Below, piece by piece: positions 7,927 through 10,703 of a stretch of DNA of 64,000 bases. The position numbers and the translations under genes are program-made. Origin of the DNA: Chrysomallon squamiferum (Eukaryota > Animalia > Mollusca); contig CM022670.1 of NCBI GenBank assembly GCA_012295275.1, positions 22,630,001 through 22,694,000 of the forward strand. The letters run 5' to 3'. The notes under the pieces are model-generated. The model did no database searches. It was given only the letters and a program-made list of their open reading frames with translations, and had not been told where the DNA came from. Position 1 is the first letter of the stretch. Each line of letters begins with the position of its first letter.

Positions 7927-10703
7927 TCGCTGTTACTTTTTTTCTTGTGAAATAAAAAACGAAAAAATTGTAATTTGTTTGATTCTTTTAAAAGTATATT
8001 TATGTGTTTGGTTTTAACATTTTTGATGTATAATGTTAGTTTTATGTATTATGGAAATGTTCTTGTATTTTAGGAACATTAGCTGATGGCAAGAAATTTG
8101 ATTCATCCAGGGATCGTGGCCAGCCTTTTAAATTCACAATTGGAATGGGTGAAGTTATCAGAGGTTTGTTGGTTCAGTGATTAGTATTTACATTGCTTGT
8201 ATTTGTTTTGCAGACTGATTGGGATATTTCATTATAGAGTTGCTGAAATAAATGCAATTTTTGTTGGAGCGGTCTTAATGTTTCAATATAATAAAATGAT
8301 TAGAGATAAAAACTATTTTTGATTACAATCAGTAAGAATGCAAGTGATATAAATGGTTCAACTGTTAGCTTTTAAAAAAAATAATTCTCATTAAAATCAT
8401 TAATACTTAACAACAGCTTGTCAAACTATAAAAATATAGGAATCTGCAATTTTGGGTACTGACACCTGGATAAATTACTAAGGTACTTATGGGCCAGAAC
8501 TGATGCTTCATTCGTGTAGTAAATCATAATATCAGAAAACTTGTACCACCCAGCTCAATATACCACACTAAATTTATCATCAATGTTGATGTTGCAAACA
8601 GGTTTGACAGTATTATGTATATACACTAATATATTGAACTGAAACCATTACTACTTTTAGTTTATAAATAAAAAGTCACCATATTTTGGCAGTGCTAAAT
8701 AAAATAGTTAAAGGTAATTTTATTTAACAGAAAAAATCTTTCAGAAATAATTTTAAAATATTAATTTCCTTTTTGAATAATTAATATTAATGAACTATTT
8801 TTTGCAGGTTGGGATGAAGGTGTTGCAGGCGTGAGTTGTTTTTTGTTTAATTTAAGGTTGATTATAACAAACGTATCTTGTTTAAATAATGGACATATTC
8901 TTTTATGTTGGCTAAAGATTATTATATTTAAAATACAGTAATTTGAGGATTTTGGGTCTAAATACAAATAATCTGGACAGATATTTATATATAAACATGT
9001 TTTAAACTGAAATTAAGAATATTAACTTTGATTTGAAAATATATAATGTTATAATATTACATACCAATTGTTTATCTAAATAATCACTTTAAAATGATGC
9101 TAATTCTGTTGCTGGTAACAAATAGTGTAATTTGAAAATAAGCAAAAAACAACAACAAACAATCAGAAATTGTCAACAAAGGCCATGCACCTTTAAAATA
9201 TTATTTCACTGATAAGCTATAGTAATATATATATGTATATTTACTTAACTTGACTAATTAACTGAAGTAATGCCATATTTTATTGTTTTCTGTGGACTGC
9301 GCTTTCACTGGATAAACACAGTATAATCAAATGCTTCTACAGTTACATCTAATTTTTTACACCAATATCCAGATATCTAGTAAACTAACCAATTAATGCT
9401 AACCTGAAAAAGAAAATTTGCTTTTGCGAAATATTTTTATTTAATTAATGAAAACAATTATTCTCTTCAAGTAACAGATGCAGATGTAATTTCTTCCTGG
9501 TTAATAGTGTATAAAGCAAGAAATTTTAACATTTTTTTTTTTCTTTTTTATTATGTTGAATTAATACTGGTACACTTTTATTTCACCCTTTATTTGAAAC
9601 ATTAATCTGTTTAGGTTAAATAGTGAAAAATGGATAAAGCTTGTATTTTATGTAGGTCAAGTAAGGATATACATTACAATTTTGATTACCCAATTTACAG
9701 ATGTCCAAAGGTGAGCAGGCCAAATTAACCATCTCTGCAGACTATGGATATGGTAAAGATGGAGCTGGCAATGTATATCCTTTAAAAAGATTTAGTAAAG
9801 GATAATGTCAGGTGTGTTTACAAGGAATATTAGCATTTTAATGAAATACCTGGGTAATTAAAATTGAATTTAGATACATTTTCTTTCAATGTTTATATTG
9901 TTTTTCAATTTTTATTGTTTCTGAAAAAATACTTCCCCCCCCCATTTTAAAGAGCAGAAAGTAGTTGTAGTATTTTATTTTGCCTTCTCTCAAAGTTTTT
10001 GTAGATTTTTCAGGAAGTCTTTTTTAATTTTTCATTCTACTTGTATGCTTGCTTGCTTTGTGTATCAGGGATTTTAATTTATATATTATAACTGTAGAAC
10101 ATGTCTAATCGTCTGGTTTGCAAGCTGATATTTCACATTTTTAAAGCTTTTTCACAATTTTATTATTTGTAAATGAATAACTAATTGGACAAGAAGATTA
10201 TCCATTAAGCACTGGCTTCTTTACTTAGCTGTACAGTTCCGAGTATATATCTGAACATTTTGTTCGATAGCTTGTTTGGTGATTGCAGATGTCAAAAGGT
10301 GAAAGGGCTAAGTTAACCATTTCTTCAGACTATGCTTATGGTGAAAAATCTTTCAGTGATCTATATCCTTTAAATTCAAAATAGGCATAGTTTAAAACAT
10401 TTCATCACTAATTCTTTTTAGCTGCTATGTGTCTTTTTGTTTTTCTCCTGTCTGTGCATTAATTTATTTTTATTCATTTTTATTTATTTTCAATGCAAAA
10501 ATCTGTATCATGAGATTTAACCAATATTATTTTAATGAAAAATAACAAAACTTTTTTTTAATTATCATTTATAATGGAGAGGTTTTTTCTGGGGTTGAGC
10601 TTTTTTTTTTTCCTGCAATGTTTTACAATAAATTTCCTTAACCTGTTCTACTATTCCACCGAACGCAACTCTGATCTTTGATGTGGAGCTGTTGGACTGT
10701 TGA
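6827..10703 (+). CDS. FKBP1A: FK506-binding protein 12 (FKBP1-type peptidyl-prolyl isomerase), 107 aa, two isoforms
   Basis: Exons 6827-6863, 7789-7836, 8074-8163, 8808-8830, (9701-9774 or 10289-10362), 10652-10703 total 324 nt: [71 protein letters not shown]...[16 protein letters not shown]. Presumably co-orthologous to vertebrate FKBP1A and FKBP1B. It is absent from the ORF track because all exons are short. Confidence 0.95.
7879..7925. repeat. Poly(T) tract in FKBP intron 2
   Basis: Run of about 47 T. Confidence 0.9.
9701..9774 (+). CDS. FKBP1A: FKBP12 mutually exclusive exon 5a ([25 protein letters not shown])
   Basis: TTTACAG acceptor, 74 nt, followed directly by the U12 donor ATATCCTTT at 9775. 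Confidence 0.92.
9775..10651 (+). other. U12-type (minor spliceosome) AT-AC intron with two alternative donors (9775 and 10363)
   Basis: ATATCCTTT donors, branch site TTCCTTAAC 10634-10642, AC acceptor 10650-10651; splicing there restores the FKBP frame (V/L-IPPNATL). Confidence 0.93.
10289..10362 (+). CDS. FKBP1A: FKBP12 mutually exclusive exon 5b ([25 protein letters not shown])
   Basis: TTGCAG acceptor, 74 nt, same phase as 5a, open frame, followed by the U12 donor ATATCCTTT at 10363. Confidence 0.9.

Follow-up and report, generated by a model that had tools for sequence, protein, structure and literature searches.

Twin exons upstream of a single AT-AC intron end in the FKBP12 gene of Chrysomallon squamiferum, a candidate mutually exclusive pair

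We analysed 64,000 nucleotides (nt) of Chrysomallon squamiferum DNA (contig CM022670.1, positions 22,630,001 to 22,694,000), referred to here as the window, an AT-rich animal sequence (24–33% GC) that carries a six-exon FKBP12 gene on its forward strand. The fifth exon of this gene is present as two homologous 74-nt copies, 5a and 5b, located next to an intron with AT-AC ends, and this twin-exon layout is real. We consider it reasonably probable that the two copies form a functional mutually exclusive pair, in which the 5a form, seen in RNA, is complemented by a likely rarer or tissue-restricted 5b form with a remodelled 80s loop. By analogy with exons 6a/6b of the JNK genes, each message likely contains one of the two exons, and the FKBP12 twins represent a JNK-type case that is new for FKBP12. 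Neither the asymmetry between the copies, 5b being the derived one as judged from comparison, nor a set of predicted RNA stems around 5a was part of the original prediction made for this stretch, which the present analysis followed up.

Twin exons between a U2-type and a U12-type intron

The features of the gene, in window coordinates, are as follows.

6725..6863, +, exon 1: ATG at 6827 and 37 coding nt (6827–6863); RNA contigs begin at 6725–6769, joint 6863>7789 GT..AG
7789..7836, +, exon 2: 48 nt, in RNA contigs
8074..8163, +, exon 3: 90 nt, Pfam FKBP_C, in RNA contigs
8808..8830, +, exon 4: 23 nt, joint 8830>9701 GT..AG in five contigs
9701..9774, +, exon 5a: residues 66–90, ancestral-type loop with Gly86 kept; the form found in RNA
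9775..9783, +, U12 donor ATATCCTTT of 5a: used, joint 9774>10652 AT..AC
9775..10288, +, hybrid intron 5a–5b: U12 donor, U2-type AG end, lacking a U12 branch site
10289..10362, +, exon 5b: derived loop with Ser86, Phe87, Ser88, Asp89 and Leu90; open frame and intact sites; RNA cover from unspliced low-depth contigs only
10363..10371, +, putative U12 donor ATATCCTTT of 5b: sequence match, no use seen in the contigs
10634..10651, +, single U12 branch site TTCCTTAAC and AC acceptor: assigned by pattern and branch-matrix score
10652..11700, +, exon 6 and 3' untranslated region (UTR): stop codon 10701–10703, 3' end not fixed

Exons 5a and 5b are identical at 51 of 74 nt (69%), with CAG directly 5' and ATATCCTTTAAA directly 3' of both. 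They have the U2-type donor GTGAGT after exon 4 (8831) in common, and one copy of TTCCTTAAC (10634–10642), preceding the AC at 10650–51, serves both. These coordinates and motifs bear out the prediction of two 74-nt exons with U2-type acceptors, perfect U12 donors and a common branch site and AC acceptor. On the + strand of the 64-kb window, the pattern RTATCCTT has three matches (9775, 10363 and 57437) and TCCTTRAC a single one, within TTCCTTAAC. We built a branch-site matrix from 26 distinct sites that other animals carry in their introns at the same position. It gives the site before the AC 14.3 bits (training median 14.3), whereas the maximum within 40 nt 5' of either AG acceptor is below −5 (−5.5 before the 5b AG) and the maximum across the whole 5a–5b intron is 3.7. 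An assembly artefact was considered and rejected, because the copies share only the stated 69% identity, their flanks are unrelated and one contig of run X5 spans both exons.

The predicted product comprises 107 amino acids with either 5a alone or 5b alone, and both forms match Pfam FKBP_C. A transcript including both exons would encode a frameshifted product of 99 amino acids with its stop 46 nt upstream of the last junction, and a transcript with neither a frameshifted product of 75, in line with the frameshifts anticipated earlier for these two forms.

Six runs (X1–X6) cover the FKBP12 stretch, all of them as assembled contigs, in which rare variants are lost. X1–X4 are RNA from one study; X6 belongs to a second study and is spliced, the kind of sample not being on record. 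The joints 8830>9701 (GT..AG) and 9774>10652 (AT..AC) occur in one contig each of X1–X4 and X6, which confirms the predicted minor intron downstream of 5a; 5a is present in all five spliced contigs from the two studies. Joints combining both twins (9774>10289) or omitting both (8830>10652) were not among the contig joints listed, where contigs show presence rather than absence. Since rare variants drop out of contigs, 5a is shown as the assembled form and an absence of 5b is not shown. Run X5 contributes a DNA-like contig (7997–11700), maybe the window's own source, which holds both exons with no listed difference inside them. Loose ends of X6 at 7818 and 8104 are pieces of a different FKBP-like transcript, whose source is either a paralogue or a second organism sampled along with the first. 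Intron 4 also contains two weak U12 branch-like motifs (9241–9254; 6.8 and 6.2 bits) within a stretch covered by unspliced contigs of X1 and X2.

Origin of the second copy and divergence of its loop

To place the twins among other animals, we searched metagenome loci for the exon end followed by the U12 donor, obtaining 76 matches, of which 10 non-FKBP loci were dropped and 66 kept. All 66 hold the same FKBP12 exon, with 37 distinct peptides. The last exon is present in 38 of them, invariably with an AC acceptor and a U12-type branch motif (38/38), and in 61/66 the coding sequence 5' of the exon does not run directly into it, which an intron at this point would predict. The exon was therefore already flanked by one U2 and one U12 intron, and the position of the AT-AC intron in FKBP12 is, on this comparison, ancient. 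The donor pattern had no match in viral contigs; five bacterial matches in genome contigs were taken as chance. In amphioxus, a public gene model (P0366) continues across the corresponding U12 donor into intronic sequence, which is likely an annotation error due to the AT-AC intron. In five loci (L002, L015, L024, L036 and L069) the exon is followed by an AT donor and lacks a U2 intron before it.

A scan for twin exons (threshold 45; 5a and 5b score 95 and 82) found none in the 20 loci (14 peptides) holding the whole interval from exon 4 to exon 6, none of which is a near relative, and none in the 38 loci with the whole minor intron. The whole-interval loci are distant from the window (best 41/54 core bases). 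Twin exons in other animals, which had been proposed as a check, were thus not recovered from these loci. The only second exon copy, in L037, lies beyond the last exon and apparently belongs to a second gene; the two FKBP12-type exons of this locus are 3.5 kb apart with an AT donor each, apparently in tandem genes with a GAGG and a GYPG loop. A tree of 74 alignment columns, which are few, pairs 5a with 5b as sisters (97/91) within a group carrying GAGG-type loops; the branch lengths are 0.045 for 5a and 0.38 for 5b. Together with the lack of twins elsewhere, this sister relationship indicates a lineage-specific duplication, with 5b as the derived copy and 5a keeping the ancestral-type loop. 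We rejected the notion that one gene has retained two loop types of ancient origin, since 5a and 5b are each other's nearest relatives.

The predicted protein has about 107 residues, one FKBP_C domain, an amino-terminal MGV and no signal peptide, and its nearest proteins in a full-length profile search are 108-residue FKBP12s with up to 81/107 identity. A protein search with exon 3 yielded no own or near protein, and a carboxy-terminal profile search was swamped by multi-domain bacterial FKBPs. Residues Y26, F36, D37, R42, F46, F48, V55, I56, W59, Y82, I91 and F99, which we take to be those of the FKBP12 binding pocket, are found in both predicted forms. The forms differ at 10 residues. Residues 84–90 differ at all seven positions (KDGAGNV in 5a, EKSFSDL in 5b), as had been claimed; the companion statement of conservation through Tyr82-Gly83 holds in a looser sense, three of the first 18 residues (Q71R, A78S, G81A) being different.

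These differences cluster. Thirteen of 20 loop bases differ vs 10 of 54 elsewhere (p = 0.0004), and four of the five polarised amino-acid changes of 5b fall in the loop (p = 0.024). Of 1928 natural FKBP pairs whose cores differ at three positions, one differs at all seven loop positions and 100 at six or more. For the core, i.e. the first 18 codons, non-synonymous and synonymous divergence between 5a and 5b were 0.09 (dN) and 0.81 (dS). A model in which 5b has been neutral since duplication matched the core pattern in at most 2.2% of 4000 simulations at each of five branch lengths, and on the 5b branch four synonymous and two non-synonymous core changes were assigned with five distant outgroups (p = 0.035). 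Furthermore, 5b contains no lesion: its length is exact, its frame open, the CAG kept and 12 donor-side bases identical. The 200-nt flanks do not align convincingly (25/500 and 71/500 shuffles reach their scores), whereas no shuffle out of 500 scores as well as the exon alignment. From the synonymous-heavy divergence of its core, 5b looks to be kept as a coding exon under selection on its protein sequence.

We compared the loops with 212 single-domain FKBPs, a set leaning to fish and to query proteins, in which the loop was readable in 133. Asp89 of 5b as well as Asn89 and Lys84 of 5a occur in none of these 133 loops. Loops of the type F87-S88-x-L90 exist naturally (DRGFSGL in P0331, ERGFSQL in P0342). 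In the six listed of ten FKBP clusters examined for isoform pairs, the named isoforms differ by the amino terminus or by read-through and none by a swapped exon.

The 80s loop contacts calcineurin, FRB and type-I TGF-beta receptors. Published work describes this loop as a recognition site of FKBP12, with the contacts to calcineurin and mTOR depending on FK506 or rapamycin (PMC3940039). For calcineurin and mTOR, the earlier proposal that the loop meets these partners is thereby restricted to the drug-bound state, which makes type-I TGF-beta/activin receptors and RyR the more relevant partners. Exchanging 5a for 5b is predicted to change partner binding while keeping the catalytic residues common to both forms.

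Exclusion, choice of exon and competing explanations

A lineage-specific duplication of the exon between an ordinary intron and the ancient AT-AC intron would have produced two exons whose splice sites restrict each other. The U2 donor of exon 4 would join the AG of 5a or that of 5b, and the AT donor of the chosen exon would then join the single U12 branch site and AC. The 5a–5b intron, with its U12 start and U2 end, would not be removed, by the incompatibility described for JNK, and joint skipping would be blocked with only an AC end left for the GT donor of exon 4. Exclusion is thus suggested by a hybrid intron without a U12 branch site and by a GT donor facing only an AC end; AT-AG and GT-AC intron combinations are known to be disfavoured (PMC3584512). 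The major/minor spliceosome mismatch invoked in the original prediction is supported by the layout and the branch scores, and of its further claim that one gene makes two FKBP12s, the two exons and the signs of selection on 5b hold, whereas inclusion of 5b was seen in 0/5 spliced contigs.

Several observations weigh against a functional pair. The 5b junctions 8830>10289 and 10362>10652 are missing from all five spliced contigs, among the pieces listed and with minor forms being dropped from contigs, so that of the two inclusion junctions to be checked only 9774>10652 was found; four of the five runs moreover come from a single study, and X1 and X2 are of equal size and possibly one data set. 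Over the 5b region these two runs contain unspliced contigs only (10174–10456 at depth 3.3, 10226–10497 at depth 2.6); the missing cover of 5b in X3, X4 and X6 carries no weight in this assessment. The 5b acceptor, with 10 pyrimidines in 20 nt, is the poorest in the gene (control median 12), and a competing AG at 10269–70, 18 nt 5' of it, would add an in-frame TGA. Gly86 is found in all 133 readable FKBP loops and all 37 exon peptides and kept in the 5a form, whereas 5b has Ser86, and no 5b-type protein, nor a close orthologue (best 81/107), exists among the 212 single-domain FKBPs. To these we add the negative twin scans, the long 5b branch and the basis of the selection tests, namely 18 codons and distant outgroups; the long branch and the lost Gly86 would also fit relaxed selection.

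Much of this would be expected if 5b, though used in the past, has since become a duplicate that is silent or decaying, rendered harmless by the spliceosome mismatch and lingering in the minor intron. The 0/5 count, the long branch with its lost glycine, the weaker acceptor and the lack of twins elsewhere all favour such a remnant, which would still neatly illustrate how the mismatch can neutralise a duplicated exon. We nevertheless regard it as unlikely, since 5b has stayed free of lesions in length, frame, CAG and 12 donor-side bases amid flanks that can no longer be aligned, its changes gather in the loop instead of being evenly spread, and minor forms are lost in contigs, so that its absence from RNA is not shown. 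The unspliced RNA in X1 and X2 and the upstream AG with its in-frame TGA, as close as in 4/39 control acceptors, would suit an exon acting mainly as a regulatory decoy, where 5b, this AG or the stalled hybrid intron lowers FKBP12 output, e.g. when the minor spliceosome is limiting. Similar low-depth contigs, however, cover other intron stretches (9209–9405, 7461–7817), and the synonymous-heavy core divergence of 5b points to selection on protein sequence, leaving the decoy quite improbable. An Rfam scan of 6500–12000 gave no match and therefore no hidden snoRNA behind the intronic RNA cover.

Exclusion might also leak. Within 5a, 2 nt before its end, a cryptic U2 donor (AAT/GTATAT) would join the twins in frame to give 131 residues with a doubled segment; the 5a–5b frame is open, and sites shared or cryptic between both spliceosomes are documented (PMC8329584, PMC3584512). 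However, no contig contains such a joint, and a doubled strand-loop segment would be unlikely to fold. The cryptic site lacks both −1G and +5G, which is rare for real U2 donors, and we hold this outcome to be very improbable. Weighing these explanations together, a functional pair with 5a as the form seen remains the reading we prefer.

If one exon is chosen per message, the choice is probably biased to 5a, and predicted RNA stems over the 5a acceptor region and U12 donor are a possible brake letting 5b win in some cells. They involve the following elements.

9663..9692, +, intronic 30-nt element over the 5a branch/pyrimidine region; predicted pairing
9776-9784 : 9796-9804, +, predicted donor hairpin of 9 base pairs (bp) covering the 5a U12 donor
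9851..9866, +, downstream stem arm predicted to pair with 9677–9692, the stem enclosing 5a

Positions 9663–9675 are a perfect 13-nt complement of 9770–9782, i.e. the 5a end and its U12 donor, and the core 10-mer of this complement occurs at only two places in 64 kb (0.09 expected). The predicted stem 9677–9692 : 9851–9866 has 16 bp with one G-U. The 13-bp and 16-bp stems cross and are therefore alternatives, the equilibrium fold consisting of the 16-bp stem and the hairpin (−53.4 vs −46.9 kcal/mol; probability of the 13-bp stem about 0), whereas in the course of transcription the 13-bp stem could be the earlier one to form. With the splice sites held open, the 5a region folds at −32.9 kcal/mol. 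The fold of 9650–9890 has z = −2.9 (2/200 shuffles). Pairing as strong as at 5a was found in none of 40 control single-exon donors and none of 35 control acceptors from the metagenome loci, in 1/1000 and 2/1000 flank shuffles (in none for both) and at 3/412 real window positions each. The cost of opening both sites was 22.1 kcal/mol for 5a and 13.5 for 5b, vs 5.7–17.4 for 36 controls.

A role for the stems has its own difficulties. They were found post hoc, with distances picked after the stems had been seen and with controls that are mutually related; across the region, 10/100 shuffles and 9/33 window tiles equal the 16-bp stem taken by itself; 5a is spliced in spite of them; and, with one species and no near-relative locus found, they have no covariation support. 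Mean acceptor accessibility is equal for 5a and 5b (0.22). No special structure was predicted around 5b (z = 0.08) and no docking site common to 5a and 5b was found. We thus consider functional stems around 5a quite possible, yet short of probable, and a two-layer switch, in which the spliceosome mismatch enforces one exon and the 30-nt antisense element sets which, as rather doubtful. If such a switch operated, one gene would give ordinary FKBP12 and, under the influence of minor-spliceosome activity, a variant with altered receptor binding, in whose recognition loop the near-invariant Gly86 is gone and acidic as well as bulky residues have been added. The short gene with its small introns would suit a minigene test of RNA structure gating a U12 donor. 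A further predicted 13-bp stem (10327–10339 : 10381–10393) connects the inside of 5b to the downstream intron and leaves the 5b U12 donor in its loop.

Relation to known systems and neighbouring features

The parallel drawn earlier with JNK 6a/6b holds for the layout, which in vertebrate MAPK8/9/10 likewise comprises homologous exons, an upstream U2 intron with two 3' sites, and two U12 donors leading to one U12 3' end across an unspliceable U12-U2 hybrid intron (PMC1874599). In contrast to FKBP12, whose twins were not found in other animals, both JNK forms have been shown, are tissue-specific and are conserved across vertebrates. In JNK the downstream exon is the default, owing to a long pyrimidine tract and to Nova (PMC1874599), whereas for FKBP12 the upstream 5a is seen, the tract of its hybrid intron is poor and the predicted stems mask sites of the upstream exon. 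There are precedents besides JNK: in TMEM87a/b, a U2 3' site competes with a U12 5' site for the choice of exon 11 or 11a (PMC8329584), and U2/U12-incompatible layouts occur in 5/629 human clusters (0.79%; PMC5740500), the same principle in different genes. Human FKBP12 genes were not seen among these clusters, an unrelated FKBP1B exon-2 candidate being the only FKBP entry among the matches listed (PMC5740500), and human FKBP3 has, among the matches listed, a catalogued minor intron (PMC11347168). No prior description of FKBP12 twin exons or of such splicing was found in the literature searched, mostly without subscription papers, consistent with the original prediction, which knew of none.

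Other likenesses are partial. Vertebrate FKBP12/12.6 are also two near-identical 12-kDa FKBPs in one animal, encoded by two genes whose 80s loops differ at one conservative position (ATGHPGI in FKBP12, ATGHPGV in FKBP12.6), whereas 5a/5b are two exons differing at 7/7. RyR2 selectivity is reported to be set by Gln31, Asn32 and Phe59 (PMC6290070), positions that lie outside exon 5 and are identical in both forms. With loops that barely differ and selectivity mapping elsewhere, FKBP12/12.6 is a poor analogue, and the suggested splicing counterpart to this pair is weak. Like ATE1 and docking-site/selector systems (PMC7797038, PMC6071210), FKBP12 has intronic complementary blocks beside duplicated exons; the pairings of those systems are conserved and tested, whereas the FKBP12 ones are predicted in one species and cover a U12 donor.

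The layout is rare in humans. The FKBP12 case illustrates how a single step can create it: upon duplication, every exon with a U2 intron on one side and an old U12 intron on the other would automatically become an exclusive pair. Such exclusivity would free one copy to change, and in FKBP12 the change is concentrated in the partner-recognition loop.

At the end of the FKBP12 3' UTR (11598–11957), a 179-nt unit is present twice in tandem (90% matches) with an AATAAA in each copy, which may give alternative FKBP12 3' ends. The gene is flanked by a RIO-kinase gene and by a Mib_herc2/RING gene on the − strand. The former, multi-exon and on the + strand (200–5060; Pfam RIO1 562–891), ends about 1.7 kb 5' of the FKBP12 start. 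The latter is a large Mind bomb-like gene (about 15300–61150, −) with Mib_herc2 at 60787–61152, RING at 15360–15674 and ankyrin-like exons near 53800–54700 and 15900–16160. Head to head with it, an open reading frame without a Pfam or Atlas match begins at about 61183 (+), which we take to be CABLES-like.

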